Assembly (NCBI GenBank): GCA_964482725.1
Contig: CAYZYT010000003.1
Coordinates: forward strand, 116,010-180,009
Length of the DNA: 64,000 nt
Direction of reading: 5' to 3'
Source of the DNA: an uncultured bacterium
GTDB lineage: Bacteria > Omnitrophota > Omnitrophia > Omnitrophales > Aquincolibacteriaceae
Shown piece after piece: positions 47,165 to 64,000 of the stretch. The number at the start of each line of letters is the position of its first letter. The stretch's first letter is position 1. A model generated the notes under the pieces. The model ran no database searches, had not been told where the DNA came from, and saw only the letters and a list, made by a program, of their open reading frames with translations. Position numbers and translations under genes: made by a program.

Positions 47165-48217
47165 ATGGCTTTGTCGCCTCGCAAGAAAGCTAAGGTCGTT
47201 AAGAAAAAGCCTTTGAACAAGGCGCAAGGCAACACCTCCGTAAAAAAAACTGCGGCTAAGTCGGCCGCGTCAACTCTCAAGCGGGTCCCCGTCACTAAAC
47301 GATCTGCTCCGGTCCTTTCCGAAGAGAATCTCCCTGTCATTGTTCACGAAACTGTTCCTGAAGCCGTGATCGTTTCGCCCAAAATTGAGAAACGGACGTA
47401 TCAGGAGATGCCGCGCGAACTTCCCGACAACTACGGCGACAATCAGGTTTATCTTATCGTCCGCGATCCTTATTGGGTCTATGCCTACTGGGAGATCCAG
47501 GAAGACCACCAGCGGCACCATCTTGCGAAACTCGGCGGAAGCTGGGAGAGCGTCGTTTCGGTTCTTCGCGTCTATGACACGACGGAAGAAGGCAAGGCCC
47601 CCTCCGTTTCTGATATCGTTCTCCAGAATATGTGCAAGTGTTGGTATGTCAATACCCAGCCGAACCACAGCTATTTTGTCGAGATCGGGCTCCTGCATCG
47701 TGATGGCCGTTTTATCTGTCTTGCCCGCTCCAATCAGGTGATCACCCCGCGATCCGGGATGTCCGAGGTTATTGATGAGCAGTGGATGAGTGTGGATTTT
47801 GATAAGATGTATGCCCTTTCCGGAGGGTTCGAGGTCGGTAAAAGTTCCGCGGAACTCCGCACGCTCATGGAAGAGCGCTTCAAGAATGCGATAACATCAG
47901 GCTCCGGGGCCGGCGCGGTCTCCAGTTTTTCCAGCCCGGTCAAGATCAAGCCGCGCGGCTTCAATTTCTGGCTTGAGTGCGAACTGATTATCTATGGCGG
48001 CACGGAACCTGACGCCAAGGTGACGATGCAGGGAAGACCCGTTCAGCTCCGGCCGGACGGAACCTTTACGCTTCGTTACGGGTTGCCGGACGGAAAATTT
48101 GTGTTTGATTGTCACGCCGAATCCTCGGACGGTATCGAGGAAAGGGTCATCACCCCGATCGTGAGTCGCAATACAGAAAGGCCCGCTCCTGTCATCAAGG
48201 CAGGAAAGCACTCCTAG
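47165..48217 (+). CDS. DUF4912-domain protein (lysine-rich N-terminus) co-located with a GH57 enzyme
   Basis: ..YGDNQVYLIVRDPYWVYAYWEI.. core typical of DUF4912; immediately followed (3 nt) by a GH57 gene. Confidence 0.65.
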   Translation: MALSPRKKAKVVKKKPLNKAQGNTSVKKTAAKSAASTLKRVPVTKRSAPVLSEENLPVIVHETVPEAVIVSPKIEKRTYQEMPRELPDNYGDNQVYLIVRDPYWVYAYWEIQEDHQRHHLAKLGGSWESVVSVLRVYDTTEEGKAPSVSDIVLQNMCKCWYVNTQPNHSYFVEIGLLHRDGRFICLARSNQVITPRSGMSEVIDEQWMSVDFDKMYALSGGFEVGKSSAELRTLMEERFKNAITSGSGAGAVSSFSSPVKIKPRGFNFWLECELIIYGGTEPDAKVTMQGRPVQLRPDGTFTLRYGLPDGKFVFDCHAESSDGIEERVITPIVSRNTERPAPVIKAGKHS

Positions 48218-48219
48218 CT

Positions 48220-49797
48220 ATGGAAAAAGGTTTTCTTTCCATAGTGCTTCACGCGCATCTGCCGTTCATTCGCCATCCTGAACACGAATATTTCTTGGAA
48301 GAGGCCTGGCTTTATGAGGCCATCACCGAGACCTACATCCCGCTTATCCATATGTTCGAGGGCCTGGAGCGGGACAACGTTCCTTGGCGACTCACGATGT
48401 CGCTCACCCCTTCGCTTATGTCCATGCTGCGCGACGAGCTCTTGCAGAACCGCTATCTGCGGCATCTGGACAAGATGATCGAGTTGGCCAATAAAGAGAT
48501 CGAGCGAACGCGTTTCCAGCCTGAATTCCATGAAACGGCGCTCCATTATTATTGGGAATTCACGCGAGCAAAGGACACCTTCGAGAACCGCTATCACAGG
48601 GATCTGACCCAGGCTTTCCGGAAATTTCAGGATCGCGGGCATCTGGAGATCATCACTTGTGCTGCGACGCACGGATTTCTCCCCTTGATTAGCCGCAATG
48701 AAGGGACTGTCCGTGCGCAGATCAAGACCGCGGCGGAACTTTATGAAAAAGTGCTCGGCCGCCGTCCGATCGGCATCTGGCTTCCTGAGTGCGGTTATTA
48801 CCCGGGCGTGGATAAATACTTAAAAGAGCAGGGCATTCGTTATTTTCTGACCGACACGCATGGTATCCTTCATGCCTCGCCGCGTCCGAAGTACGGGGTT
48901 TTCGCGCCGATCTTTTGTCCGAGTGGGGTGGCCGCGTTCGGCCGCGATGTGGAATCTTCCAAGCAGGTCTGGTCGGCCATTGAAGGATATCCTGGCGACC
49001 CGGATTACCGGGAATTTTATCGCGATATCGGTTTCGAACTGGATTTCGATTATATCCGTCCCTATATTTCCCCCGACGGCCTGCGCGTCAATACCGGCAT
49101 CAAATATCACCGTATCACGGGCAGCGGCGAAGATAAAAAACCCTACGTGCGGAACTGGGCCATGCAAAAGGCTGCTTCACACGCCGCGAACTTCATGTTC
49201 AATCGAGAGAAGCAAGCGGAATACCTTTATGACTTCATGGGCCGGAAACCCCTGATCGTGGCTCCTTATGACGCGGAACTTTACGGACACTGGTGGTATG
49301 AAGGTCCGGATTTCTTGAACCTTTTCGTGCGCAAGTCTGCCTTCGATCAGAAGACATTCCGTTTGATCGCGCCGTCCGATTATTTCAAGGAATATCCCGT
49401 CAATCAGGTTTCCACCCCCTGTTTCTCAAGCTGGGGTTGGAAGGGATATAGCGAAACATGGCTTTCCAGTGCCAACGACTGGATCTATCGCCACCTTCAC
49501 AAAGCTTCCTTGCGCATGAGCGAGATGGCCCAGAAATTCCGTGGTCAGAACGGGAATGTCGGCCGTGCGCTCAAACAGGCCGCGCGCGAACTTTTTCTCG
49601 CGCAGTCCAGTGACTGGGCGTTTATCATGCATACGGGGACCGTGGTGCCCTATGCCGTGAAACGGACGAAAGAGCATCTTCTCAATTTCACAAAGATCTA
49701 TGACGATCTTATGAATAACCGGCTTGATGAAGGCTGGCTCCGCGAACTGGAAGGGAAGAATAATATCTTTCCGGATGTGGATCACGAAGTCTTTTAA
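48220..49797 (+). CDS. Glycoside hydrolase family 57 alpha-glucan enzyme (GH57 branching enzyme / amylase-like)
   Basis: N-terminal ..FLSIVLHAHLPFIRHPEHEYFLEEAWLYEAITETYIPL.. GH57 signature and ..WLPECGY.. catalytic region; 525 aa after start correction. Confidence 0.85.
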   Translation: MEKGFLSIVLHAHLPFIRHPEHEYFLEEAWLYEAITETYIPLIHMFEGLERDNVPWRLTMSLTPSLMSMLRDELLQNRYLRHLDKMIELANKEIERTRFQPEFHETALHYYWEFTRAKDTFENRYHRDLTQAFRKFQDRGHLEIITCAATHGFLPLISRNEGTVRAQIKTAAELYEKVLGRRPIGIWLPECGYYPGVDKYLKEQGIRYFLTDTHGILHASPRPKYGVFAPIFCPSGVAAFGRDVESSKQVWSAIEGYPGDPDYREFYRDIGFELDFDYIRPYISPDGLRVNTGIKYHRITGSGEDKKPYVRNWAMQKAASHAANFMFNREKQAEYLYDFMGRKPLIVAPYDAELYGHWWYEGPDFLNLFVRKSAFDQKTFRLIAPSDYFKEYPVNQVSTPCFSSWGWKGYSETWLSSANDWIYRHLHKASLRMSEMAQKFRGQNGNVGRALKQAARELFLAQSSDWAFIMHTGTVVPYAVKRTKEHLLNFTKIYDDLMNNRLDEGWLRELEGKNNIFPDVDHEVF

Positions 49798-49983
49798 AAG
49801 CCAAGAACATAAACGCTAAATCCTAAGCTCTAGAAAAATCCAAAAAGCAAAGTCTTAAAAGAACCAGGGTTCTGAATTTTTGGTTTTGAATGTTTGAGTT
49901 TATTTAGAGTTTAGTGTTTTATGTTTAGAGTTTTCTATGGACATCGGCGTGCGTTTTGCACATTTTCTTAAAATAGAGAGGGT

Positions 49984-50202
49984 ATGATCATGCAGGAACA
50001 GTATTACGGGATCGGTGAAACGGCGGGAAAGATCTATAAAACGTTGGAACAAAAAGGGGAGATGACCCTCGCGAGGCTTCTTAAAGAAGTCGCGACAGAT
50101 GAGGCTCTTTTCAACCAGGCTATCGGTTGGCTCGCCCGTGAGAATAATATTAATTTTGGAAAGATCGGCAAGATCGTTAAGGTGTCTCTCCTGAAGGGGT
50201 AA
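49984..50202 (+). CDS. Small winged-helix-like protein (possible regulator) upstream of the giant gene
   Basis: 72-aa ORF followed by a strong intrinsic terminator; function unknown. Confidence 0.45.
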   Translation: MIMQEQYYGIGETAGKIYKTLEQKGEMTLARLLKEVATDEALFNQAIGWLARENNINFGKIGKIVKVSLLKG

Positions 50203-50231: not shown

Positions 50232-50268
50232 AGGCGTGGGGCGATCTCTTGGCCCCGCGCCTTTTTTT
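50232..50268 (+). terminator. Rho-independent terminator
   Basis: ggcgtggggc / gccccgcgcc stem (one G-U pair), 9-nt loop, T8 run. Confidence 0.7.
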
Positions 50269-50496
50269 TCTTTCCCCCTGAGTTCCAGCGTCGGCGTAAG
50301 TGCCGGCTTGTCGGCTCCCCCTGAATGCGATGGGGTGTGTGTTTTCGGATAAAAGAAAGTAGCGGTCAGCTGCTCTTCTCGTTGTTTCTCTCTCTGAAGT
50401 CGCTCGTTCTAATCCATGACGGTTAGGCCCGCATTCATTTTCTCCCCAGTTCAATGATTCTTGAAGGGCCGAATTCTATGATTATTTGATTAACGA

Positions 50497-50540
50497 TGCT
50501 ATAAAGTGCTATAAGCGCTGCTATAAATTGTTATAAACGG
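50497..50540 (+). promoter_or_regulatory. Four phased GCTATAA(A/G) direct repeats (10-12 bp spacing) in the promoter region of the giant gene
   Basis: gctataaag-t-gctataagc-gct-gctataaat-t-gttataaac, about 80-120 nt upstream of ATG 50617; AT-rich context. Confidence 0.45.
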
Positions 50541-50616
50541 TGTTTTTTATTAAAAAAGTGATGCGGAGCTATTGATTTACCTCATTTTGTAGAGTATTCT
50601 TCTATTAGGGAAGAAA

Positions 50617-53600
50617 ATGAAAAATAAAAATGTTGTAGACCAACTATGGGAATGCAGTGACTCGAAACGTGGAATGGGGAATGGGGAACGTTCTGCGAAT
50701 TTCGAACTGCAGAAGACAGACCAGAGACTAGAGACTGCAGCCTGGAATTTTGGAACGTGTGACAAGCGTTTGGTTTATGAGTCTCCGGTCTCCAGTCTCT
50801 TGTCTCGAGTCGTTTTCAAAAAAGCGGTGGCGCTTGCGACAGCCTTTGTATTCCTTTGGTCGATGTGCATCACGCCGGTGATGGCGGAAACGATCAATGT
50901 CCAGGGCGGCAGTATTGATGTGAATGTTCAGGACAATACGACGAACTGGAATGTCCAGGGCAATCCCGTGTGGAACGTCCCCGAGTTCAATGTGGCGCAA
51001 GGAAACATTTATAACATCGCGGGTCTTAATCAGGGCTCCAGTCTTGCGCTTCTTGTGAACGGCGGCAGTGCCTCCAACATCTTCGGAACGATGAACCTCT
51101 CCAATCTGGATTTCATTCTTCAAAATATCGCCGGCATCAACATCGGCGGAAGTGCCATGATCAATCTCTCGAACGCGTCCCTAATCGCCTCGACATTGCC
51201 ACTCAACCTGAGCACGACGGATTTTCTCTCAAGGGATTATCAGTTCAGCGGGCAGGGCGGGTTCCTGATGAATGCTGGGAAGATCGTCGGGACAAATGCC
51301 GATCTTGTGGCCCTGGTTGCGAACGCCATCGAAAACCGCGGGACGATCGAAGTACCGATGGGTACCGTGGCGCTTGCTGCGGGGAATACGGTCACCGTTG
51401 GCATCTCGCCGGACGGCATGGTCTCGATCGGTGTCGATGAAGCGACAGCGAACAAAATGGGCTTGAAGGATCAGATCAAGAACAGTGGAAGTATCACGGC
51501 CGACGGAGGCCGGGTGGTCCTGAATGCTCAGGCCATGGACGGGCTCTTTGACAAAGCCATCAGCATTGAACGGAGCGGGAACTCTGTCGATGCAGTCCGG
51601 GCGGATAACGGTACTGTCGATTTCCAATCCATGGATGATGTCTTTAACGATGCGGTTATCAAAGCATCGGGCGGGACCGTCAAGATCGCATCAACCCAAG
51701 GCGCCGTGATGAATGCCGGAACCCTTGAAGCAAACAAGGGCAAAGTTGAAGTGACAGCTGCCCAAGAAGTGACGAATAAGGCGAAGATCGAGGCGATCGA
51801 AGGAGCGATCAAGATCATCTCTGAGAAAAGCGACGTGGTGAATCAGGGGACGATGAAGGCGGACAAGGGTGAGATCAAGATCGCCTCGACCCAGGGTGCC
51901 GTGACGAATGCCGGGACTGTGGTGGCGGCTAAAGGTAAAGTCGAAGTCGTGGCCGCTAAAGACGTGACGAATCAAGCGACCGTTCAGGCGGATGAGGGTT
52001 CGATCATCGTCGTGTCCACGAAAAGAGATGTGGTGAATCAGGGGACAATGAAGTCAGAGAAAGGCGAGGTCAAGATCACCTCCACTCAAGGGAACGTGAC
52101 GAATGCCGGGACGGTTGCCGCGGATCATGGCAAGATCGAAGTGACCGCTAAAAAGGATATTGTGAACGACGCCATCATGAGCGGCGTGGGAGGAGAGATC
52201 AAGGTCAATTCCACCGAAGGGGCTATCACGAATAAAGGCACGCTGAAAGCCGACGACGGAGCCATCAGACTCACGGCGGCGCAAACGGTTTATAACAAAA
52301 AACTTATGGATGCGCGACAGGGCAAGATCGAAGTTGAGTCCGTAAAGAGTGACGTGGTGAACGAAGGGACGATGGCGGCTGAAAAAGGCGAGATCAAAGT
52401 CACGTCTCTGGAGGGCAAGATCACGAACGCCGGCATCATGCAGGCCCAGAGCGGCAATATCAAGCTCACCGCCGAACAGGCGGTTTACAACAAAATGCTC
52501 ATCGAAGCGCTTGGCGGTAAGGTGGAAGTGACCTCCAAGAAAGCGGAGGTTACGAACGATGGTACGCTTGACGCGGTGGGAGGAAAAGTCGCGCTGACTG
52601 CGGCGGGCGCAGTGGAAACAAAGGGCGTTTTGAAAGCGGCGGAAGTGACCGAGCGTGGCGCGAGCTTCAAGATGGGCGGGCGGGTCGAAGTCGGGACGAT
52701 GGATATGGATAACCTCGACAATCGCGCGGACATCGCGGCGCTGGCCGAACTTTCCGGTGTTTTTTCAGACGAAGATGACATTACCGTCCTCGGCGATTTC
52801 AGTCTTGTCGGAGATACCACGATCTGGACCGATTCCAATGTGACTGGGACGGACGGGACGCTCACCTGGGATGCGGATCATACCGTGACTGGGAACGGCC
52901 ACGACCTCACGCTCAAAGTCTCCAAGAATTCCACCGTCGGCGCGATCACAGGCGTGGATCTTCTCACGCTCGACAAGAACACCGACAAGACGCCGACTTA
53001 TACCGGCTCCACCGCCAATGACATCAGCGTGAACACTTTCAAGACCATGAACGGCGTGACCTTTTCCAAGACCGTCACCGGAAGAGACGGCCTCGCCGCG
53101 AATACAGCCTTTCTTGTCTACGATGTGACCCAACTCCAGGGCATGGCCAATGACCTGGATGCCTTTTATGAAGTCGCCAACAACATTGACGCCTCCGAGA
53201 CCTCAAGCTGGAATGCCGGTGCCGGTTTCGATCCTGTGGGAAATGTCGATCCGGGGACCGAGTTTACGGGAACGTTTGACGGTGCAAACCACACCATTTC
53301 TGATCTTAAGATCAGCACCTCTTCCGACAATGTCGGCCTTTTCGGCTATATCTCCGGGGCCGGAGCCATGATCTCAGATATCCGGCTCTTGAATGTCGCT
53401 GTCGCGGGCGGTACTTACGTTGGCGGACTCGTAGGATTTAATGCCGGCGGCTCCGTTGATAATGCAGGCAGCAACGGGACTGTTAGTGGTAGTAATGTCG
53501 GCGGGCTAGTGGGACAGAATGAAGGTTTTATCAGTAACTCTTACGGCGGCGGAACCCTCAGCGGTGGCAATGTCGGCGGCTTCGTGGGATACAATACGGG

Positions 53601-56600
53601 CACTATCAGCTACTCCTACAGTACGGGGAGTGTCAGCGGCGGTAACAATGTCGGCGGATTGGTGGCGGTGAATAGTGGACCTATCAGTTACTCCTATAGC
53701 AATGCAGATGTTTTTAGCAGCAATTCTTCTATCGGCGGGTTGGTGGGAAATAACTCCTTTGCTACCATCAGTAACTCCTACAGCACCGGACGCGTTTTCG
53801 GCGGTCAGTATGTGGGCGGGTTGGTGGGTATCAACGATAACGGTTTTGTCAATAATTCCTACAGCACAGGAAATGTTGTTGGAAGTGGTTCTTATTATAG
53901 CAATGGTCAGTACATCGGCGGGTTGGTGGGAGGTAACTGGTATGGCTCGGTCACTGATTCCTACAGTACGGGAAGTGTAAGCGGCGGAATCCGTGTGGGG
54001 GGATTGGTGGGTATGAACGATTGGAGTTCCATCAATAATTCCTATGCGACAGGAAATGTATCAGGCAATACCGCGTCTAACAATTTAGTCGGGCCTCTCA
54101 CAGGTACTCAGGGCACTATTAATAATTCCTACTACGTGTCAGGCACTGCCAGCAATAGTGGCGGCGGTACAGTCAATACCTATGGAACCGGGACTGATAC
54201 CGTAGCCAATTTTCAGAATCCGGCTCACACAGCCTTGGTTTACACAGCGGGTGCTTCTCCTTGGACATTCAATGCCTCCAACTGGAAGGTCGTGACCTAC
54301 GATGATGATTATCCCTATCTGACGTTCGAGGAGAATGTTAATACGGCGGCTCAACTTAAAGCTATCTCTGGCGGTGATTTAACGGCCCGATACAGGCAGG
54401 GCGCCGATATCGATCTGACCAGCGTAGATTTTACCTCCTATATCATCGGTAACACTACGGCTTTTACGGGCACATACAATGGCAATGGTTATACTATTTC
54501 TAATCTTACAATAAGTGCGCCGACCACGGATAATGTCGGGCTCTTCGGATCCACATCCAACGCGACGATCCTTTCCAACATACATCTCCAGAACGTGGAT
54601 ATTTCCGGTCAATCGAGCGTCGGCGGATTGGTGGGGTCCAATAGCGGTGCTTTTATCAGCAATTCATCGGTTTCCGGGATTGTAAGCAGTACAGGTGATT
54701 ATGTAGGCGGGCTTGCGGGATCGAGCTTTGGCTCTATCAGTAATTCTTACAGCTCCGGCAGTGTAACAGGCGGTGGCGATTATGCCGGCGGGTTGGTGGG
54801 AAGTGTTTTTTTTAGCACCCTCAGTAACACCTACAGTACTTCGAGCGTAAGCGGTCATGATTATGTGGGCGGGTTGGTGGCATACAGTGAAGGTATAACC
54901 ATTCTTAACTCCTACAGCACCGGGAATGTAAGCGGTGCTAGCTATGTCGGTGGTTTGCAGGGATTTAGTGATGGTTCCATCGATAATTCGTTTAGTACAG
55001 GACGTGTCACTGCTACCGGTAGTTATGTGGGCGGTTTGGTGGGAGGAAATTGGAGCACAATTACCAATTCCGGATGGTATGACAACGCCGGAGATAGTGC
55101 CACTTATGCCATCGGAAGCGCCTCAGCGGACATCACCTACAATGTCGGGAAAGCAGGTACGGACGGAGGCGGCAAATATTACTATGCATCTTCTGACTCG
55201 ACCTGGTTCTTCGATTCCTCGAAGGATATTTATGATACGGGCGCGACTCCGTGGGATATTGCCGCAACGCATGATGGCTCTGCTTGGGCGATGTCGGGGA
55301 GTAATAGCGCGTTCCCGCTCCTGCAGATGCGTTACTCCACGACGATTACTGACGCTGTTCAGCTCCAGTTGATGTTCCTTGATCTCGCAGGTAATTACAC
55401 TCTCGCCAACAACATCAGCGCTGCGGAAACCTCGACCTGGAACGCTGGTCTCGGATTCGATCCGGTGGGAGACAGTACGAATGAATTCAGGGGAATTTTT
55501 GACGGTAATTCGAAGGTGATCACAGGCCTTACGATCAACAGAGAAACCGAGAGTTATGTCGGCCTTTTTGGGCAAACAAGCGCCGCGACAATTTCAGACA
55601 TCGGCCTCTCTGACGTCAATGTCAAAGGCCTCGAGTTTACCGGCGGACTGGTGGGCTACAATTACAACAGCACGATCGAAAATTCTTTTTCAGCAGGTAC
55701 CGTGACGGGCGCTGATGCGAGTTCCCAAATCGGAGGTCTCGTGGGTAAAAATGATTCTTCAGGCGAGATTACCCATTCTTATTCCACCGGGACTGTCACT
55801 GCCGGCAGCGGGAGTTATCGTGTCGGCGGGCTTGTGGGTTATGCCGGCTCTACAAGTAATATCAACGATTCCTATTCCACGGCGGACGTGACAGGCGTCG
55901 GCGATAGTTCTTATCTCGGCGGTCTTTTGGGCTTTAATAATGGCGGTGCCATCGCCAGCTCTTACGCGTCAGGTACCGTAACAGGCGGCGTTGGAAGCTA
56001 CAATATGGGCGGCCTTGTCGGGACGAATTATAACGGCGGCACGATCAATAAGTCCTACTCCACCGGGGCTGTCACGGGAAATGACGACAGTTATCAACTG
56101 GGCGGACTTGTGGGGCAAAACGGTACTGCCGGCGCTGCAAGCGTGGTCAGCAACTCTTATTCCACGAGTAACGTAACGGGCGGCAGCAATAGTTATCGTC
56201 TCGGTGGACTTGTGGGAGAGAACAGCTCCAGCGATATTACCAACGCCTATTCATCCGGAACTGTCGCAGGTGCAGACGGTACCTCCCAAGTGGGCGGTCT
56301 TGTGGGTTTTAATAATTCAGGCGACGTCACGAACTCCTTTTCGGCAGGCGCCGTCACCGGCGGTACCGGCAGCGACCACATCGGCGGTCTTGTCGGTGAT
56401 GATGTCACCGGCACCTACGTCAACAACTGGTATGTTTCCACCAGCCAGGGGATTAGCAATAAAGCGGATGTTGTAGGCGAGGTGAGCAAGGAGACCGACG
56501 GCGCGAGCGCTTTCTTTGATTCTGCGCATCCGGTCTATTGGCTTAATGGCATTCCCTCAGGGACGGCTGCTTGGGATATCCATACGACTTACAATGCCAG

Positions 56601-59600
56601 CAATATATGGGCGATGCAGGGGACAGGCGAAATGCTTCCGATGCTCCAGATGCGCTATGCGACGGACATCACGGATGCCGTATCGTTACAGCTGATGTTC
56701 CTCAACCTCGCAGGCAATTACACCCTCGCAAATAACATCGATGCTTCGGAGACTGCGACCTGGAATGCCGGTCTTGGCTTCGATCCGGTGGGCAATAACG
56801 CGGGCCGGTTCACGGGTTCGTTCGACGGGAACGGATATTCCATCAGCGGGCTGATCATCGATCGGACCACGGATCATACCGGTCTCTTCGGTTACGCGCA
56901 GTCCTCCAACAGTTTCACCGATGTTAACCTCACGGGCGTGTCGATCACGGGCGCCAATAACGTTGGCGGCTTGATCGGAACGAGTGACGGAGTGAGCGTG
57001 TCGGGTTCTTCCGTGGCCGGCGCGGTGAGCGGCTCGGGCCAGCAGATCGGCGGCCTCATCGGTTTTATGACGGAGGGAATTCTTTCGGACTCCTACACGA
57101 CGGCTTCCGTGACCGCTACGGGAACGAGCGATAGCGTGGGTGGCATTGTCGGCGGGCTTACAGCCGGGACGATCGAGAGAGCTTATGCCTCCGGAGATAT
57201 TTCAGGTTATGGGAATGTGGGCGGCATTGCCGGATATGCGGACACTTCCAGCACGATCAAAAATGTTTACTCCACCGGACACGTGACGGGGACTTCCTGG
57301 TGCATCGGCGGTATCGTTGGCTGGTTTGATTCGAGCACGCTTGAAAATTCCTACGCCTCGGGAAGGGTCGAGGGTGGCTCGGGCGACAGCGGGGATGTGG
57401 GCGGACTTGTAGGAACCAACAAATCGACCAGCACGGTGAAGAATTCTTTCGCGACGGGACTGGTCACCGGCCAAACCGATGTGGGCGGCGCAATCGGCGA
57501 TAACGCCAGCGCTACGAATGTGAACAACTGGTGGTACAGCGCCACCGCCCAGGGCGTCGGGGCCGGTTCCGCGTCGGGAGTGAGCCAGGAGACGAACGGT
57601 GCTGCAGCTTTCTACGACCCCAGCCATCCAGTGTATAACGGCACCACAACCTGGGATTTCGCCACACCGGTTTGGGTGGAAACCGCGAATACCTATCCTC
57701 TCTTAGCGTTTCAATTCACAGTCATCTCGACTCCTGAACAGTTAGAGGCGGTGTCGAGTGGTAATCTTGCCGGATACTATCGGCTTGGAGACGATATTGA
57801 TCTGGCCGGTATTGATTTTACGCCTTATATGATCGGGAATGATGCCACGGCATTCTCAGGTATCTTTGCGGGGGCCGGGCATACGATATCCAATCTATCC
57901 ATAAACAGCGGATCGAATAACGTGGGATTGTTCGGATATACGAATGGCGCCCGATTTTCAAATATTGGATTGATCAATACCGATGTCACAGGCACCGGTT
58001 ATGCCACCGGGGGATTAGTGGGGGTGAGTTACTACTCCGCCATAGCCCATGCCTATTCCTTGGGGACTGTAACGGGTTCTTTTATCACCGGCGCCTTGGT
58101 GGGCTATAATTTCTCTTCGCCTATTTCTAATTCTTATGCCGCGAGTACTGTCGTGGGTTATCAAACCACCGGCGGCTTGGTAGGAAGTAATTCCTACTCC
58201 GACATCTCTAATTCCTACTCCACGGGCACTGTCACAGGGACGGGAACCGGCGGAGGTGATTATTCCACCGGCGGCTTAGTGGGATGGAATGAAGCATCCA
58301 CCATCTTTAGTTCTTATTCCGCGAGCGCCGTAACAGGTGCGGGTTATTCCACCGGCGGTTTAGTGGGATGGAATGGTTACGCCATCATCTCGAACTCCTA
58401 TTCCGTCGGTCCGGTCATAGGAACTGGTTATGCCACCGGCGGCTTAGCCGGAGTTAATAATTTGTCCGAGATCACCAACTCCTACTCTGCGGGTACTGTG
58501 GCAGGCAATAATGCCGCCGGAGGGGTGGTGGGATTTAACCGCTATTCCACCATCACCAACTCCTTTGCCACCGGGAGGGTGGATGGTTCTCTGTACATCG
58601 GCGGCCTTGTGGGCGACGATTTCAGTGGCACCTATGCCAACAGCGGTTGGTACAAAGATCCCGCCGGCGATGCCGTCTACGCCATAGGGGACACTTCGAC
58701 GGACGCTACCTATAACGTAGGAAAGTCCGGTACAGATTCAGGGGACCTACATTACTTTTCTACTGCCACCCCGAGCTGGTTCTACGATAAAACGCAGGAC
58801 ATTTATGATACAGGCGCGACGCCGTGGGATTTTGATGCGGATGGTGTTTCGGCTGGACATAACGGCAACTGGATCATGGCGGGCCTGCCGCACCTGCAGA
58901 ATGAATGGACGGACACCATTACCAACGTCGCGCAACTCCAGATGATGGCGCTTGATCTTGATGCCAATTACACCCTCGCCAATAATATCGATGCTTCGGA
59001 TACCGTCAACTGGAACGCTGGCCTCGGCTTTGATCCGGTGGGGTATTCGACCATTGTGAATTCGATGGACCATCCTTATACCGGAAATTTTGATGGGAAT
59101 TCCCATACGATCACGGGGCTTACGATCAATCGTCCCACAGAGGATTTCGTGGGTCTTTTTGGAGGTATCTCGGGGAATGTACACGATGTCGGGCTTACCA
59201 ATGTGTCTGTCACAGGGGCTGCGTATGCCAGCGGCTTAGTTGCCATGAACCTTGGTACGATCGATAAATCATATTCACAAGGTGCCGTTAGCGGTTCAGA
59301 CGCTGTTGGCGTGCTATGTGGATATAATGGATATCTCTCGGGCTCTATTTCGAATTCCTATTCAACGGGAACAGTTCGCACCAGTTGGAGAGACGTGGGG
59401 GGACTGGTCGGGACCAATGCCGGCATCATTCTCAACAGCTATTCATCGGCTGCTGTGACAGGAGGATCGCTTACCACTTCCGGGGGTCTCGTGGGGTATT
59501 TCCCCGCAGGGAGTATCTCTAACAGCTACGCAACGGGGATTGCCACAGGTCCCAGCAATGTGGGCGGGCTGATTGGCTATTATAGTGCCGGTACGCTGAC

Positions 59601-62600
59601 GAACAACTATTGGTACAACGAGACGAATACGGTGGGTATCGGAAATACCACTTCCGCCAACGTAACGAAAGCCGCGTCCTCATCAGCCCTGACGAGTTCT
59701 AGCCACGCGGTTTATTCGGGATGGGATTTTGATGCGGATGGTGTTTCGGCTGGACATAACGGCAACTGGATCATGGCGGGCCTTCCGCATCTGCAGATGG
59801 AATGGACGACAAGTATCACGAATGCCGCCGAACTCCAGATGATGGCCCTCAATCTCGATGCTTCCTATGTGCTCGCCGACAACATTGATGCCTCCGGGAC
59901 CGCGACCTGGAATTGGGACGGGGCAAAGTATCTCGGATTTGATCCGATAGGCAGAAGTGCGCCATATTTTACGGGAACTTTTGACGGACAAAATCACACG
60001 ATCGCGGACCTTGCTATCAATCGGCGAACTGAAACCATGGTCGGTCTTTTTGGGATGACGAGCGGTGCGGAAATTCGGGATGTTGGCCTTGTGGGTGGCA
60101 GCGTGAGTGGCCATGGTTTTGTCGGTTCATTGGTTGCGGTCCATTCTGCGAGTTCAATCATTACAAACGCGTACTCGACGGCTGATGTGATCGGCACTTG
60201 GGCTGTGGGTGGCCTAGTGGGCAATAATCAGGTAGGTGCGAGCGTTGTCGATTCGTACGCGGCTGGGGACATCCACGGTAGTTACAACCAGATTGGGGGT
60301 CTGGTCGGTCATAATGTTAGTTCGAGTATCACAAATTCTTACGCGACTGGCAATGTGACCGGTGAAGGGAACGAAGTTGGCGGTTTGGTTGGGAATAATG
60401 AATTGGGTGCGAGCATTACCGACTCGCATGCTACGGGCAGTGCAAGTGGGGTCGATAGTGTCGGGGGTTTGGTGGGAATGAATGAGGATGAGGATTCCCT
60501 TATTACAAATTCCTATGCTACGGGCGATGTAAGCGGTACGACCAATTTTGGCGGTCTTATTGGACTTAATGTTGCAAGCGGGATCACGGGGATTACCGAT
60601 TCTTACGCTCATAAAGTCTACAACGCCCTCGATCTGCAACTCATGCGGTATGACCTCGATGGTAACTTCACACTTCAGAACAATATCGATGCTTCGGCGA
60701 CCTCGACCTGGAACTCCGGTTCCGGTTTTGTCCCCGTCGGCGATTTTACTAATAAATTTTCCGGATCACTCAATGGCCTTGGCCATAAGATCAGCGGCCT
60801 CTTTATCAACCGATCGACGACAGACAACGTGGGCTTGTTTGGAGCTACGTCAGGAACGGCGGTGCTGAGTAACATCGGCATGGTGGGGAGTAATTTCCTC
60901 GGGAAACGGGAGGTGGGGGGATTGGTCGGCTATCATCTGGGGGCGATCAGCAACTCTTACAATGCTGGGACTCTCTCGGCTGCGGGTGTGTATCTTGGAG
61001 GATTGGTCGGCTACATGGCCGGCGGGTCGATCACCGATTCGTACAATACGGGAACTCTTTCCGGGCTTCAGGCCGTCGGAGGACTGGTCGGGTATAGTGC
61101 CGGTTCCATTACTCGTTCTTATAATTCCGGAAGTGTGACCGGCACCGATATCAATATCGGCGGTTTGGTGGGGAGTAACACGGGCGCGATCACCAATTCG
61201 TTTAACGCGGGGCATGTCACCGGCGTCACCACTTCGACCGGCGGCGCGATCGGCCTTCAGAGCAGTGGTGCGCTTACCAACAACTGGTATGTCGACAGTT
61301 CCGATACCGGGATTACCTGGGGAGTCGGCAGCAACCATACCGACCCCAGCGGCATCAATAAGCAAGCCGGTGCAACGATCGATGTAGCCAAGGCCGCTTT
61401 CTATTCCTCCGGACATACGGTCTATTCGGGATGGGATTTTGATATGAACGGTATTTCAGCGGGGAATGACGGGACCTGGATCATGGCCGGCCTGCCGCAT
61501 CTTCAGAACGAATGGACCACGACGATCACGAATGCCACCGAACTCCAGATGATGAACTTGAATTTTTCTGCCCATTACACTCTCGCCAATGATATCGATG
61601 CCTCCGCGACTTCGACTTGGAATGGCGGTCTCGGTTTTAAACAAGTGGGGTACACGACAGGAAACCAGTGGAGTCCTCCGAACAAGCTGTTCACCGGAGA
61701 ACTGGACGGCGGGGCGCACACGATCACGGGGCTGACGATCGATCGACCGGCGGAGTCCTATGTCGGGTTGTTCGGAGCGACCAGCGGAGCGACGGTCAGT
61801 AACATCGGGCTCCTGGACGTCGACATCACCGGTTACATGTCCGTCGGCGGTCTTGCCGGTTCGAGTGCCGGCGGCAGCAGCATCACCAATGCCTATGTCA
61901 CTGGGATTGTGACCGGGGATATGAGCAACCAGTGTTTTGGCGGGCTTGTGGGGGTCAACGATACCGCCTCTTCCATTGCGAATTCCTATTCGACGGCGGC
62001 GGTCGTAGGCGGGGATCTTGCGGGCGGTCTGGTGGGTTTTAATGACATCGGTTCTACGATCACCAACTCCTTCTCCACCGGAATCGTCACCGGCGGGTGG
62101 GGCATTATCGGCGGCTTTGCCGGTGAGAATGACGGCACGATCACCAATTCTTTTTCAACCGGCGCCGCGACGGGGGCAGGAACGGTGGGCGGAATGCTCG
62201 GGTATGTCAGCGGCGGCACGCTGACGAATAACTGGTGGTTTAACGAGACGAATCGAGTCGCGGTCGGCAATGCGTCTCCTGCCGGCGTTACCAAAGCCAG
62301 CGGCTATGGCGATTTCTACGGGACGGGTTCGGGCACCGGTGGCGCGGTGTATAACCCCGCGGCCAGCAGTCCGTGGGTGTTCGATGCTTCGAATTGGTCC
62401 GCGTCGCTCGACGATATGGATAGCGACCTCTACTATCCGTCCCTTGCTTTCGAGAATAAAGTTTACACAAAGATCTCGGATGAAGCGGGCCTCCGAAATC
62501 TTCATGAAGGAAATCTTGCCGGCAATTACTATCTCGGTGCGGATATTCCGCTCACCGCGCCTTTTACAAGCGACATCATCGGGAACAGTACGACGCCTTT

Positions 62601-64000
62601 CACCGGCATGTTTCTCGGCCACGGCCACACTATCTCAGATCTTGTGATTGACACTTCGAGCAGTAATTCCGGATTATTCGGCAAAACATCCGGAGCGACG
62701 CTCGCCGATATCCAGCTCCTCAACGTGGATGTCTCGGGAGGTAATTCCACCGGGAGTTTGGTGGGTTATAGTGATTTCTCTTCCATCACCTCCAGCTATG
62801 CGACGGGTAGCGTGAGCGGGGCAGACTCCGTGGGTGGTTTGGTCGGCGTGACTAACTACTCCGCCATCGCCTCAAGCTCGACCGGGGGGAGTGTGAGCGG
62901 CGTGAGTTCCGTGGGCGGTCTTGTGGGTCTCAATTGGTCGACGCCTGTCACCTCGAGCCATTCTTCGGCAACCGTTAGCGGTAGCGGCGACTGGACTGGT
63001 GGCCTCGTGGGTTATAACAATTCCTCAGCGATTACCGCGAGCTACGCGACGGGAAATGTTACAGGCGGCGTCAGGGAAGCCGGCGGTCTTGTCGGGCGCA
63101 ATATTGATTCAAGTTCAATCACCGGTTCCTACGCTTCGGGAACGGTTCAGGGTGGCGATGATACCGGGGGCTTGGTCGGGAAGAACTGGGATGCTTCTTC
63201 GGTCACTTCCAGCTATGCCACGGGAAGCGTCAGCGGTGAGAACAGCGTGGGTGGCCTGGTTGGGCGTAACTGGTCGGACAGCGGGACAAGTTCTATCACC
63301 TCCAGTTATGCTTCCGGGAGTGTGATGGGTACGACGAATGTCGGGGGTCTGGTCGGTGAAAATTATGATTCTTCCATCACCAGTTCTTTCAGTACTGGAT
63401 TGGCGAGAGCGTCGGGAAGTGACGAGAGCGGTCTGATCGGGTATTACTGGAGCGGCACGCTGGCGAACAACTGGTGGTTTAGCAGTAATATCTCGGGAGT
63501 TTGGCACACGACTCCCACGGGCGTGACTAAAGCCGCGTCCGCCGAAGCCTTTTTTAATTCCACTCATTCGGTTTATACCGGCGCCAGTCCCTGGGATATT
63601 GCATCCACTTATGACGGATCGGTCTGGGCGCTGTCGGGGAATAATGGCGCGTTCCCGCTTTTGCAGATGCGGTATTCCACGGATATTTCGGATGTCACGC
63701 AACTGCAACTTATGTATCTCGATCTCGATGCTTCTTACACTTTAGCCAATGACATCGACGCTTCTTCGACCGCAACCTGGAACGTTGGCAAAGGGTTTGA
63801 ACCGGTGGGGACTTCGGCCGGAGACCCTTGGGATGCTCCTGTGAACCCATTCATGGGAGATCTTGACGGTGGAAGACATACGATCTCAGGTCTTACGATC
63901 AACCGTCCGACGGAGGACTACGTCGGATTATTTGGCGCGACAAACGGATCCATGATCACCGATGTGGGGTTGGTGGGTGGCAGCATCAGCGGTCATAATA
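50617..64000 (+). CDS. Giant secreted TpsA-like exoprotein: extended leader/signal peptide, TPS (haemagglutination-activity) domain, FHA-like beta-helix repeats and >=11 tandem capped parallel-beta-helix modules of GLUG-like 20-aa repeats (3' end outside window; >4460 codons)
   Basis: ATG 50617 with AGGGAAG RBS. Frame 1 was read through by eye with no stops found (the supplied ORF track lists no frame-1 ORF here), with spot checks at 50941, 51061, 52261, 52861, 53881, 54121, 55201, 56461, 57661, 58981, 59281, 60601, 61321, 62401 and 63901. Signal-peptide-like h-region ..KKAVALATAFVFLWSMCITPVMA. TPS-like region ..NVQGNPVWNVPEFNVAQGNIYNI...ALLVNGGSASNIFGTMNLSNLDFILQNIAGINIGGSAMINLSNASLIASTL.... 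Repeats such as VGGLVGxNxGxIxNSYSTGxVxG recur more than 100 times. Confidence 0.75.
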   Translation, partial: MKNKNVVDQLWECSDSKRGMGNGERSANFELQKTDQRLETAAWNFGTCDKRLVYESPVSSLLSRVVFKKAVALATAFVFLWSMCITPVMAETINVQGGSIDVNVQDNTTNWNVQGNPVWNVPEFNVAQGNIYNIAGLNQGSSLALLVNGGSASNIFGTMNLSNLDFILQNIAGINIGGSAMINLSNASLIASTLPLNLSTTDFLSRDYQFSGQGGFLMNAGKIVGTNADLVALVANAIENRGTIEVPMGTVALAAGNTVTVGISPDGMVSIGVDEATANKMGLKDQIKNSGSITADGGRVVLNAQAMDGLFDKAISIERSGNSVDAVRADNGTVDFQSMDDVFNDAVIKASGGTVKIASTQGAVMNAGTLEANKGKVEVTAAQEVTNKAKIEAIEGAIKIISEKSDVVNQGTMKADKGEIKIASTQGAVTNAGTVVAAKGKVEVVAAKDVTNQATVQADEGSIIVVSTKRDVVNQGTMKSEKGEVKITSTQGNVTNAGTVAADHGKIEVTAKKDIVNDAIMSGVGGEIKVNSTEGAITNKGTLKADDGAIRLTAAQTVYNKKLMDARQGKIEVESVKSDVVNEGTMAAEKGEIKVTSLEGKITNAGIMQAQSGNIKLTAEQAVYNKMLIEALGGKVEVTSKKAEVTNDGTLDAVGGKVALTAAGAVETKGVLKAAEVTERGASFKMGGRVEVGTMDMDNLDNRADIAALAELSGVFSDEDDITVLGDFSLVGDTTIWTDSNVTGTDGTLTWDADHTVTGNGHDLTLKVSKNSTVGAITGVDLLTLDKNTDKTPTYTGSTANDISVNTFKTMNGVTFSKTVTGRDGLAANTAFLVYDVTQLQGMANDLDAFYEVANNIDASETSSWNAGAGFDPVGNVDPGTEFTGTFDGANHTISDLKISTSSDNVGLFGYISGAGAMISDIRLLNVAVAGGTYVGGLVGFNAGGSVDNAGSNGTVSGSNVGGLVGQNEGFISNSYGGGTLSGGNVGGFVGYNTGTISYSYSTGSVSGGNNVGGLVAVNSGPISYSYSNADVFSSNSSIGGLVGNNSFATISNSYSTGRVFGGQYVGGLVGINDNGFVNNSYSTGNVVGSGSYYSNGQYIGGLVGGNWYGSVTDSYSTGSVSGGIRVGGLVGMNDWSSINNSYATGNVSGNTASNNLVGPLTGTQGTINNSYYVSGTASNSGGGTVNTYGTGTDTVANFQNPAHTALVYTAGASPWTFNASNWKVVTYDDDYPYLTFEENVNTAAQLKAISGGDLTARYRQGADIDLTSVDFTSYIIGNTTAFTGTYNGNGYTISNLTISAPTTDNVGLFGSTSNATILSNIHLQNVDISGQSSVGGLVGSNSGAFISNSSVSGIVSSTGDYVGGLAGSSFGSISNSYSSGSVTGGGDYAGGLVGSVFFSTLSNTYSTSSVSGHDYVGGLVAYSEGITILNSYSTGNVSGASYVGGLQGFSDGSIDNSFSTGRVTATGSYVGGLVGGNWSTITNSGWYDNAGDSATYAIGSASADITYNVGKAGTDGGGKYYYASSDSTWFFDSSKDIYDTGATPWDIAATHDGSAWAMSGSNSAFPLLQMRYSTTITDAVQLQLMFLDLAGNYTLANNISAAETSTWNAGLGFDPVGDSTNEFRGIFDGNSKVITGLTINRETESYVGLFGQTSAATISDIGLSDVNVKGLEFTGGLVGYNYNSTIENSFSAGTVTGADASSQIGGLVGKNDSSGEITHSYSTGTVTAGSGSYRVGGLVGYAGSTSNINDSYSTADVTGVGDSSYLGGLLGFNNGGAIASSYASGTVTGGVGSYNMGGLVGTNYNGGTINKSYSTGAVTGNDDSYQLGGLVGQNGTAGAASVVSNSYSTSNVTGGSNSYRLGGLVGENSSSDITNAYSSGTVAGADGTSQVGGLVGFNNSGDVTNSFSAGAVTGGTGSDHIGGLVGDDVTGTYVNNWYVSTSQGISNKADVVGEVSKETDGASAFFDSAHPVYWLNGIPSGTAAWDIHTTYNASNIWAMQGTGEMLPMLQMRYATDITDAVSLQLMFLNLAGNYTLANNIDASETATWNAGLGFDPVGNNAGRFTGSFDGNGYSISGLIIDRTTDHTGLFGYAQSSNSFTDVNLTGVSITGANNVGGLIGTSDGVSVSGSSVAGAVSGSGQQIGGLIGFMTEGILSDSYTTASVTATGTSDSVGGIVGGLTAGTIERAYASGDISGYGNVGGIAGYADTSSTIKNVYSTGHVTGTSWCIGGIVGWFDSSTLENSYASGRVEGGSGDSGDVGGLVGTNKSTSTVKNSFATGLVTGQTDVGGAIGDNASATNVNNWWYSATAQGVGAGSASGVSQETNGAAAFYDPSHPVYNGTTTWDFATPVWVETANTYPLLAFQFTVISTPEQLEAVSSGNLAGYYRLGDDIDLAGIDFTPYMIGNDATAFSGIFAGAGHTISNLSINSGSNNVGLFGYTNGARFSNIGLINTDVTGTGYATGGLVGVSYYSAIAHAYSLGTVTGSFITGALVGYNFSSPISNSYAASTVVGYQTTGGLVGSNSYSDISNSYSTGTVTGTGTGGGDYSTGGLVGWNEASTIFSSYSASAVTGAGYSTGGLVGWNGYAIISNSYSVGPVIGTGYATGGLAGVNNLSEITNSYSAGTVAGNNAAGGVVGFNRYSTITNSFATGRVDGSLYIGGLVGDDFSGTYANSGWYKDPAGDAVYAIGDTSTDATYNVGKSGTDSGDLHYFSTATPSWFYDKTQDIYDTGATPWDFDADGVSAGHNGNWIMAGLPHLQNEWTDTITNVAQLQMMALDLDANYTLANNIDASDTVNWNAGLGFDPVGYSTIVNSMDHPYTGNFDGNSHTITGLTINRPTEDFVGLFGGISGNVHDVGLTNVSVTGAAYASGLVAMNLGTIDKSYSQGAVSGSDAVGVLCGYNGYLSGSISNSYSTGTVRTSWRDVGGLVGTNAGIILNSYSSAAVTGGSLTTSGGLVGYFPAGSISNSYATGIATGPSNVGGLIGYYSAGTLTNNYWYNETNTVGIGNTTSANVTKAASSSALTSSSHAVYSGWDFDADGVSAGHNGNWIMAGLPHLQMEWTTSITNAAELQMMALNLDASYVLADNIDASGTATWNWDGAKYLGFDPIGRSAPYFTGTFDGQNHTIADLAINRRTETMVGLFGMTSGAEIRDVGLVGGSVSGHGFVGSLVAVHSASSIITNAYSTADVIGTWAVGGLVGNNQVGASVVDSYAAGDIHGSYNQIGGLVGHNVSSSITNSYATGNVTGEGNEVGGLVGNNELGASITDSHATGSASGVDSVGGLVGMNEDEDSLITNSYATGDVSGTTNFGGLIGLNVASGITGITDSYAHKVYNALDLQLMRYDLDGNFTLQNNIDASATSTWNSGSGFVPVGDFTNKFSGSLNGLGHKISGLFINRSTTDNVGLFGATSGTAVLSNIGMVGSNFLGKREVGGLVGYHLGAISNSYNAGTLSAAGVYLGGLVGYMAGGSITDSYNTGTLSGLQAVGGLVGYSAGSITRSYNSGSVTGTDINIGGLVGSNTGAITNSFNAGHVTGVTTSTGGAIGLQSSGALTNNWYVDSSDTGITWGVGSNHTDPSGINKQAGATIDVAKAAFYSSGHTVYSGWDFDMNGISAGNDGTWIMAGLPHLQNEWTTTITNATELQMMNLNFSAHYTLANDIDASATSTWNGGLGFKQVGYTTGNQWSPPNKLFTGELDGGAHTITGLTIDRPAESYVGLFGATSGATVSNIGLLDVDITGYMSVGGLAGSSAGGSSITNAYVTGIVTGDMSNQCFGGLVGVNDTASSIANSYSTAAVVGGDLAGGLVGFNDIGSTITNSFSTGIVTGGWGIIGGFAGENDGTITNSFSTGAATGAGTVGGMLGYVSGGTLTNNWWFNETNRVAVGNASPAGVTKASGYGDFYGTGSGTGGAVYNPAASSPWVFDASNWSASLDDMDSDLYYPSLAFENKVYTKISDEAGLRNLHEGNLAGNYYLGADIPLTAPFTSDIIGNSTTPFTGMFLGHGHTISDLVIDTSSSNSGLFGKTSGATLADIQLLNVDVSGGNSTGSLVGYSDFSSITSSYATGSVSGADSVGGLVGVTNYSAIASSSTGGSVSGVSSVGGLVGLNWSTPVTSSHSSATVSGSGDWTGGLVGYNNSSAITASYATGNVTGGVREAGGLVGRNIDSSSITGSYASGTVQGGDDTGGLVGKNWDASSVTSSYATGSVSGENSVGGLVGRNWSDSGTSSITSSYASGSVMGTTNVGGLVGENYDSSITSSFSTGLARASGSDESGLIGYYWSGTLANNWWFSSNISGVWHTTPTGVTKAASAEAFFNSTHSVYTGASPWDIASTYDGSVWALSGNNGAFPLLQMRYSTDISDVTQLQLMYLDLDASYTLANDIDASSTATWNVGKGFEPVGTSAGDPWDAPVNPFMGDLDGGRHTISGLTINRPTEDYVGLFGATNGSMITDVGLVGGSISGHN
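53150..64000 (+). repeat. Tandem coding modules (about 0.8-1.3 kb each, >=11 copies) within the giant ORF
   Basis: Cap motifs recur at ~53179, 54403, 55408, 56731, 57791, 58981, 59878, 60679, 61589, 62539 and 63749. Two cap types: ..LQLM.L.L..NYTLANNIDAS.T.TWN.G.GF.PVG...FTG.FDGN.HTI.GL.I.R.....VGLFG and ..YRLG.DIDL...DFT.Y.IGN..TAF.G.F.G.GHTISNL.I. Confidence 0.75.

Follow-up and report, generated by a model that had tools for sequence, protein, structure and literature searches.

The adhesins EtpA of enterotoxigenic E. coli and HMW1 of Haemophilus influenzae are Sec-exported, beta-helical proteins with a two-partner secretion (TPS) domain, and they are encoded in an operon with the TpsB partner and a glycosyltransferase. 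FhaB of Bordetella is a giant TpsA with NPNL and NPNG motifs and an adjacent fhaC gene, and its C-terminal region reportedly is not present in the shed fibre but stays with the cell (PMC13232309). The NPNG motif is conserved among TpsAs, extended signal peptides are known in some TpsA and autotransporter proteins, one TpsB may secrete several TpsAs, and arrangements other than an operon exist (review PMC5422565). Beta-helical domains of the GLUG and Peptidase_M26_N families occur as a single copy joined to an M26 catalytic domain in the IgA1 metalloproteases of S. pneumoniae (6xja, 6xjb) and G. haemolysans (7uvk, 7uvl). The giant proteins described from the phylum Omnitrophota (Archaeovorin-type, Dockerin-type and transmembrane (TM)-rich) are of another kind, with 20–147 thousand aa, many TM helices, dockerins or SecA-like domains, and type II/IV secretion neighbours; the papers on them mention neither TPS nor GLUG. 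Here we describe a gene from an uncultured member of this phylum (GTDB family Aquincolibacteriaceae) that fills the last 13.4 kb of the window, a 64,000 nt stretch of contig CAYZYT010000003.1 (assembly GCA_964482725.1). We consider it likely that these 13.4 kb form the 5' part of a genuine giant type Vb (TpsA-type) exoprotein gene, the product of which would be exported by Sec and an unlinked TpsB to serve as a surface-fibre adhesin.

Reading frame 1 is open from the ATG at 50617 to 63999, giving 4,461 codons and zero stops on translation to the window edge, while the remaining five frames contain 61–271 stops apiece over the same 13.4 kb, which excludes a chance origin of the open frame. An earlier note on this DNA had described the same open frame, with only short antisense or shadow open reading frames (ORFs) listed in the other frames, and had proposed a giant TpsA-like secreted protein; the analysis agrees on each count, the protein being recognized by its signal peptide, TPS fold, beta-helical shaft and tandem modules of the GLUG/IgA1-protease type. 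The note was also correct that the ORF track does not include the gene, but the cause is a listing rule that omits ORFs leaving the window rather than anything biological. The closest in-frame stop 5' of the gene is at 50590, and the earliest start codon thereafter is the ATG at 50617. This ATG is nearly invariant in a related species, as are a Shine-Dalgarno-like block (AGGGA(A/C)AG) and some 120 nt of 5' sequence, even though the coding sequence there is only about 75% identical, which supports 50617 as the start codon. The parts of the gene product are as follows, all on the forward strand:

50617..50817 (+), N-terminal extension of the leader, aa 1–67, with an MKNKN..DQLW start and a hydrophilic linker
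50818..50886 (+), signal peptide core, aa 68–90, with KK, hydrophobic AVALATAFVFLWSMCI and a TPVMA/ET cleavage motif
50887..51651 (+), divergent TPS domain, aa 91–345, placed by phmmer, AlphaFold and Foldseek
51652..52716 (+), beta-helical shaft, aa 346–700, with rungs of about 21 aa in 65-aa triple units
52717..53097 (+), connector from shaft to first module, aa 701–827, no family match, bounds set by the neighbouring features
53098..54297 (+), GLUG module 1, aa 828–1227, placed by anchor, alignment and GLUG Pfam match
54298..55320 (+), GLUG module 2, aa 1228–1568, variant N-cap type, best Peptidase_M26_N match
55321..56643 (+), GLUG module 3, aa 1569–2009, the longest, with 11 GGLVG-type rungs
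56644..57687 (+), GLUG module 4, aa 2010–2357, the module modelled by AlphaFold
57688..58911 (+), GLUG module 5, aa 2358–2765, variant N-cap type
58912..59802 (+), GLUG module 6, aa 2766–3062
59803..60591 (+), GLUG module 7, aa 3063–3325, the shortest, lacking the C-terminal subdomain
60592..61524 (+), GLUG module 8, aa 3326–3636
61525..62433 (+), GLUG module 9, aa 3637–3939
62434..63684 (+), GLUG module 10, aa 3940–4356, variant N-cap type
63685..64000 (+), start of GLUG module 11, aa 4357–4461, truncated at the window edge, past which the gene continues

The assignment to the TPS superfamily rests on both sequence and fold, a TPS domain being an N-capped beta-helix of about 250 aa such as those in FHA, HMW1, HpmA and EtpA. 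A phmmer search of all PDB sequences returned a single protein, the TpsA adhesin EtpA (8cpk; E 1.4e-10 over about 200 residues), and the more distant database homologues nearly all carry the Haemagg_act domain (PF05860). The AlphaFold model of aa 91–460, at a predicted local distance difference test (pLDDT) score of 94.6, gave nine Foldseek matches in the PDB at E<=1e-3, all of them TPS domains (EtpA, HMW1, HxuA and FHA), with E-values of 1.8e-12 for EtpA (8cpk) and 1.1e-11 for HMW1 (2odl). Judged by the model, the N-terminal domain is a divergent but structurally unmistakable TPS domain, and the earlier suggestion of a TPS-like N-terminus holds for a domain that has diverged from PF05860. While EtpA and HMW1 provide the best N-terminal matches in sequence and fold, they carry NPNG where the window protein has NIAG, are only about 20% identical to it, have passengers that are 3–4 times shorter and lack GLUG modules, and are linked to a TpsB gene, whereas none lies near the window gene.

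The leader of about 90 aa with a signal-peptide-like end that the note had pointed out is also present. The sole hydrophobic segment of the whole 4,461-aa product spans aa 70–90, and the Sec signal peptide expected of a TpsA, as read from the sequence, consists of this single h-region with KK and the cleavage motif VMA/ET, of which A90, E91 and T92 are invariant across the family alignment. The preceding extension (aa 1–67) begins with a family-wide MK(N/K)EN..TQ start, shares the segment LETAAWNFGTCD.RL..ESPVSSLLS with a full-length relative described below (P0331), and is positionally analogous to the extended signal peptide region; a search of the leader with the Pfam ESPR family (PF13018) gave no match.

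Downstream of the TPS domain, the shaft contains three 195-nt direct repeats (51680–52264) that are 62–71% identical, and the model shows regular three-strand rungs up to aa 460. The shaft repeats fit no Fil_haemagg Pfam family and give only weak beta-helix-type Pfam matches, so that the FHA-like repeats of about 20 aa named in the note are real as beta-helix rungs, but without a match to Fil_haemagg.

Beyond the connector, the anchor motif F.G.FDG..H.I..L.I marks 11 module starts at a spacing of 263–441 aa, ten of the modules being complete and one cut by the window. Pfam GLUG (PF07581) matches with an E-value of 2e-143 (457.7 bits against a cutoff of 20.5) in 19 stretches, and Peptidase_M26_N (PF05342) with 5.5e-23 (81.9 bits, cutoff 27.7); the claim of at least 11 tandem GLUG-like modules is therefore upheld by the 11 anchors and the GLUG match. 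Identity between modules is 38–56% in protein and 60–76% in DNA, values that indicate old paralogs not prone to assembly collapse. The AlphaFold model of module 4 (pLDDT 91.0) consists of a helical N-cap, a right-handed beta-helix, of which the GGLVG repeats are the rungs, a small C-terminal subdomain and a flexible linker of low confidence. The beta-helix anticipated for a single module is thus seen in this model, and the low-confidence linker suggests that the modules are strung together like beads instead of forming a single unbroken helix. Foldseek matches of module 4 were significant only for 3n6z (6.8e-6) and for 7uvl, 7uvk, 6xja and 6xjb (3e-5 to 2.5e-4), which represent the beta-helix of the IgA1-protease N-terminal type. 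The IgA1 metalloproteases and B. ovatus BACOVA_03286 (3n6z) accordingly share the module fold and the GLUG and Peptidase_M26_N families with the window protein, which differs from the proteases in having at least 11 tandem copies, a type V leader and no catalytic domain. An IgA1-specific M26 metalloprotease was considered as an identity for the product and rejected, given that the part within the window has no catalytic family match and no HExxH. The GLUG module alone is very widespread in bacteria and archaea (at least 1,393 matches at E<=1e-10).

The mature part of the protein within the window (4,371 aa) contains 3 Cys, has an isoelectric point of 4.2, consists to 46% of G+S+T+N and is without a membrane-spanning segment, a composition that is as expected for a type V passenger. 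It is long, beta-helical in both models and cysteine-poor, as TpsA passengers are. The shaft, with some 29 rungs, and the 11 modules, with 6–11 rungs each plus caps, would build a fibre of at least about 70 nm.

The note had regarded a TPS domain followed by GLUG modules as something other than a standard described architecture. This does not hold, as the same design is annotated in many cultured Proteobacteria. A homologue search with the first 2,357 aa as query, in which matches were apparently limited to about 1.75 times the query length, showed many proteobacterial proteins of 2,000–4,000 aa that combine ESPR, Haemagg_act and Peptidase_M26_N/GLUG, often with MBG/YDG. Examples come from Cupriavidus basilensis (P0185, 3,859 aa), Cupriavidus (P0191), Azospirillum (P0241, P0249 and P0257) and Rhizobium (P0259 and P0266), and also from Halomonas (P0208), Stenotrophomonas (P0244) and Pseudomonas protegens (P0040). 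They are uncharacterised, and in NCBI they go by the names of 'GLUG motif-containing', 'MBG domain-containing' or 'filamentous hemagglutinin N-terminal domain-containing' proteins. No paper treating GLUG together with two-partner secretion or filamentous hemagglutinin was found in the open-access literature, and the GLUG-bearing family seems to be without experimental study. These proteins resemble the window protein in their extended signal peptide, TPS domain and repeated Peptidase_M26_N/GLUG modules, often with MBG/YDG, but they match PF05860 and ESPR (PF13018), neither of which the window protein matches, their precomputed Pfam lists include no FecR-like C-terminal domain, and they are only distantly similar to it (about 29–36% identity). 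The described Omnitrophota giants share with it the phylum and a proposed role in cell-surface contact, whereas the window protein has a single signal peptide, a TPS domain, housekeeping neighbours and none of their Pfam families. The overall TPS plus GLUG design is thus already common in databases, and the interest of this gene lies mostly in lineage-specific features of its family, which are partly outside the window.

That family was delimited by a full HMMER pass over 1.84 billion representatives, which found 4,467 TPS-type proteins. Only about 21 clusters reach E<=1e-98, and a gap separates them from the general superfamily, so that the window-type TPS domain (FILQNIAGI motif) forms a small, distinct clade. 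The domain is 50–78% identical to that of about 35 relatives, and the named genomes bearing the clade are Omnitrophota. At least eight paralogs on separate contigs occur in the metagenome-assembled genome binchicken_co117_453 (CAZSFZ01; loci L018, L020–L025 and L032), and three in Candidatus Omnitrophica AM-2014-D6_bin-627 (L026, L033 and L035). Passengers within the clade are interchangeable, and comprise GLUG modules, RCC1 propellers, PATR repeats or YDG/MBG repeats. At two of the loci, two or three giant ORFs follow one another in the same orientation, in some cases with an overlap of about 200 nt (L021, 3–6092, 9896–18169 and 17934–21527; L023, 9118–12303 and 12105–18134), and they may represent frameshifts, split genes or tandem paralogs.

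Seventeen relatives combine the window-type TPS N-terminus with a FecR-like domain (PF04773) of about 125 aa as their very last residues, irrespective of the passenger in between. This domain scores above the Pfam FecR threshold, is 57–95% identical between relatives and holds the sequence ...TALTGVRGT(V/I)FEV, the Gly-Thr of which presumably resembles the self-cleavage site of FecR/FoxR-type anti-sigma factors; compared with PDB sequences, it gave no match. Bearers of the tail are P0173, P0174, P0176, P0177, P0180, P0181, P0186, P0192, P0194, P0199–P0201, P0203, P0206, P0211, P0220, P0221, P0331 and P0333, and its position was recorded at seven loci:

L011, 14621–14992, FecR-like tail
L013, 17501–17869, FecR-like tail
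L026, 4633–5004, FecR-like tail
L027, 4979–5350, FecR-like tail
L028, 17546–17914, FecR-like tail
L033, 17329–17697, FecR-like tail
L035, 4099–4461, FecR-like tail

A second C-terminal type in the clade consists of tandem repeats similar to GVEEITTDIRMxEGG (P0184, P0178, P0182 and P0183). The closest full-length relative, P0331 (5,861 aa), has an extended leader like that of the window protein, to which it shows 42% identity across roughly the first 1,900 aa; past its GLUG modules it has a long run of YDG/MBG-type repeats of about 80 aa, as judged by eye, and then the terminal FecR-like domain. Just before that tail, at about aa 5546–5653, P0331 also contains a genuine translation initiation factor IF-2 domain (PF11987; 82 bits, E 3e-23), which is peculiar to it among all the relatives compared and could reflect domain capture or a chimeric gene call. 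A syntenic ortholog in another species, found in the same DUF4912-GH57-DUF2582 context, has 6,102 aa and 45% identity over 1,700 aa, and is probably complete, since about 185 nt of its contig lie beyond its end. Only GLUG/M26_N is present in the first 3,216 aa of this ortholog, YDG and MBG_2 are listed after these, and FecR is listed last among its Pfam matches. By analogy with such relatives, the window gene probably continues for 1–2 thousand codons, adds YDG/MBG-type repeats and ends in a FecR-like domain. A query with the last module found no continuation of the gene among the contigs of GTDB genomes, and in JGI metagenomes only relatives with 31–41% identity.

The search for a TpsB partner gave a consistent picture. 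The statement in the note that no TpsB/ShlB-type gene lies upstream was confirmed, since Pfam searches of 30 window ORFs, covering the 50 kb before the gene, found no POTRA or ShlB domain. Its further suggestion, that the partner should lie just past the window end, is unlikely, because three complete relatives on contigs of 130–227 kb are flanked on either side, over 10 kb, by nothing but housekeeping genes, and because no POTRA_2/ShlB family recurs among the matches listed for 45 TpsB-sized ORFs beside 15 further paralog loci. An apparent TpsB-TpsA fusion of 1,201 aa (P0028) was encountered at locus L017, 10001–13606 (GCA_037975565.1, JBBCBH010009131.1), with POTRA_2, a ShlB barrel and a TPS domain; it was rejected as an Omnitrophota TpsB, its genomic context looking unrelated. 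A phmmer search with its POTRA/ShlB half against 719 ORFs from all loci and the window gave no match.

The following course of export would fit these observations. The precursor would cross the inner membrane via Sec, the extended leader slowing or controlling its targeting, and once in the periplasm the TPS domain would be recognised by an Omp85-type TpsB channel. The gene for this channel would lie elsewhere in the genome, and a single channel would serve several paralogs. The passenger would then be translocated vectorially and, on reaching the outside, fold as a modular fibre with which the cell adheres to host cells or particles, while the C-terminal FecR-like domain might stay behind in the periplasm and act as an anchor or a release switch. 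This last role is speculative, and draws on a functional analogy with the C-terminal region of FhaB, the C-terminal parts of the two proteins being unrelated in sequence. Omnitrophota are uncultured, ultra-small bacteria that are thought to live attached to, or to prey on, other cells, and an adhesin fibre would fit the host-dependent life proposed for them. A role in adhesion has been proposed for giant proteins of host-dependent Omnitrophota (PMC10066038).

Several observations weigh against a TpsA-type adhesin. The TPS domain has no match to PF05860 even at E<=10, and reaches only 23.7 bits with NCBIfam TIGR01901, under the cutoff of 29.1; among the profile searches that the note had called for, that with GLUG succeeded, while those with PF05860 and the Fil_haemagg families did not. 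At the position of the NPNG motif the protein reads N-I-A-G (LQNIAGI, aa 168), with only the N and G kept. NIAG is found in 26 of 37 family members, and in a set of 43 distant TPS matches the motif pattern fits 28, 16 of which have the PN middle (NPNG) and 7 more have P at the first position. A TpsA gene usually shares its operon with the gene of a TpsB, which consists of POTRA domains and a 16-stranded ShlB-type barrel. No such neighbour was found in the 50 kb upstream within the window, in the 10-kb flanks of the complete relatives or by similarity to the POTRA/ShlB half of the fusion protein, and none recurs among the matches listed for the 15 further paralog loci. The gene runs off the window edge, its own stop and 3' end lying past 64000, and a function as an adhesin is a prediction from the architecture.

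The missing partner and the altered motif could also mean that export is non-canonical, with a TPS-like domain that has no dedicated TpsB and uses a general Omp85 protein (BamA/TamA-like) or some other channel, and with the FecR-like C-terminal domain as the second half of a two-ended device for secretion and anchoring. Such an arrangement would account for the absence of TpsB at the roughly 20 loci inspected, for the change from NPNG to NIAG in most of the family, and for termini (50–74% identity in the TPS domain and 57–95% in the C-terminal domain) that are far better kept than the swapped passengers. We nevertheless regard it as unlikely: unlinked tpsB genes and shared TpsBs are known (PMC5422565), the TpsB search covered 10-kb flanks rather than whole genomes, and the TPS fold is kept at high confidence together with its cap and extra-helical elements, which argues for a retained partner. 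A single unlinked TpsB serving the paralogs (up to 8 per genome) is the most economical reading. As to the passenger, polysaccharide lyases and hydrolases are frequent among right-handed beta-helix proteins, and the GLUG modules might instead be an array of enzymes acting on a polymer at the surface of prey or host cells, which they would cleave or modify. The module model does resemble chondroitinase B, pectate lyases and phage tailspike depolymerases, but at E-values of 0.05–0.4 that are not significant, and the degradation of cell walls has been proposed for giant Omnitrophota proteins (bioRxiv 10.1101/2023.11.21.568195). Motif and Pfam scans of the 4,461 aa found no HExxH, no VENN/pretoxin and no other catalytic or toxin signature, and the homologous domain of the IgA1 proteases is itself non-catalytic, standing beside a separate M26 domain that the window protein lacks, all of which makes an enzyme array quite improbable.

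The absence of VENN or pretoxin motifs from the window speaks against a CdiA-like contact-dependent inhibition protein with its toxin tip past the window. CdiA is likewise a giant TpsA, in which a beta-helical shaft follows the N-terminal TPS domain (review PMC5422565), but complete relatives of the window protein end in the FecR-like domain or the EEITTDIRM repeats rather than a toxin, no immunity-like gene recurs downstream and there is no adjacent cdiB. With toxin features absent from both the window and the relatives, this identity was rejected as very improbable. There is, finally, the prospect that mis-assembled repeats have created a long frame, or that the gene is a pseudogene. Repeat-rich giant genes do break metagenome assemblies, and all related short-read contigs end within the gene. 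The frame, however, has no stop in 13.4 kb, its repeats are too diverged in DNA (60–76% identity) to collapse, and the architecture recurs independently in orthologs and paralogs from other samples, so that an artefact was rejected and is scarcely credible. A genuine TpsA-type exoprotein gene with an unlinked TpsB is the reading we retain.

More tentatively, and with the odds somewhat against it, Omnitrophota may carry an undescribed type V subtype that is multi-copy (up to 8+ per genome), has NIAG TPS and FecR-like ends with exchangeable passengers between them, and has no linked TpsB. If so, an N-terminus for passage through the outer membrane and a C-terminus for periplasmic retention or regulated release would cooperate, and these ultra-small, host-dependent bacteria would possess a modular set of attachment fibres that are long relative to the cell. 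Attention in Omnitrophota has gone to the TM-rich giants, to which the window gene adds a type V leader for modular beta-helix fibres. For specialists in two-partner secretion, the features of interest are the lack of a linked transporter, the altered signature motif and the conserved FecR-like tail, and the GLUG family, so far free of function, gains a clear structural context. The gene offers concrete parts for further work in a TPS fragment of about 370 aa, single GLUG modules and the tail domain. We do not regard the gene as medically or mechanistically surprising enough to count as a major discovery.

Two features precede the gene:

50233..50269 (+), intrinsic terminator of the upstream DUF2582 winged-helix gene, stem GGCGTGGGGC/GCCCCGCGCC, 9-nt loop and T8, read directly from the sequence
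50496..50616 (+), conserved upstream block, aligned with loci L003, L004 and L005 and far better kept than other intergenic sequence

The terminator is kept in the related species with compensatory stem changes, and its position behind the upstream gene makes the giant gene its own transcription unit; a consensus terminator scan did not detect it, its loop being longer than 8 nt. The conserved block contains four GCTATAA/GTTATAA-like words, an A/T tract, a promoter-like pair TTGATT...TAGAGT and the ribosome-binding site AGGGAAG (50607–50613), and may have a promoter or operator role. The four words (50496–50560, +; ATGCTATAAAGTGCTATAAGCGCTGCTATAAATTGTTATAAAC) are kept in the related species and could be an operator. 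No Rfam family scored above threshold in the upstream and leader region.

Housekeeping and transport functions occupy the 50 kb 5' of the giant gene. The transport proteins there are a MacB-type ABC pump, accompanied by a TolC-like OEP, and a TonB-dependent receptor; the other products are an H+-pyrophosphatase, glycerol kinase, GlgB, radical-SAM enzymes, phospholipid synthesis proteins, DUF4912, the GH57 branching enzyme and the DUF2582 winged-helix protein. The TolC-like OEP and the TonB-dependent receptor indicate a diderm host, and the nearest N-terminal homologues of the giant protein are from Omnitrophota. The gene order DUF4912 - GH57 - DUF2582 - giant gene is conserved. The DUF2582 protein (49990–50202, +; 70 aa) is 100% identical to that of a related species, with about 20 nucleotide differences in the gene, all synonymous, while the adjoining genes have only about 75% DNA identity; the protein may regulate the giant gene. 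The AT-rich intergenic stretch 5' of it (49798–49990, +) contains repeated GTTTAGAGTTT-like words and gave only sub-threshold, implausible Rfam matches to plant microRNA families. The ORFs called mechanically for DUF4912 (47165–48217) and the GH57 branching enzyme (48109–49797), both on the + strand, overlap by about 110 nt. On related contigs the GH57 product is called at 525 aa, beginning just past the DUF4912 stop, and the true GH57 start in the window is, by this comparison, probably downstream of the listed TTG.

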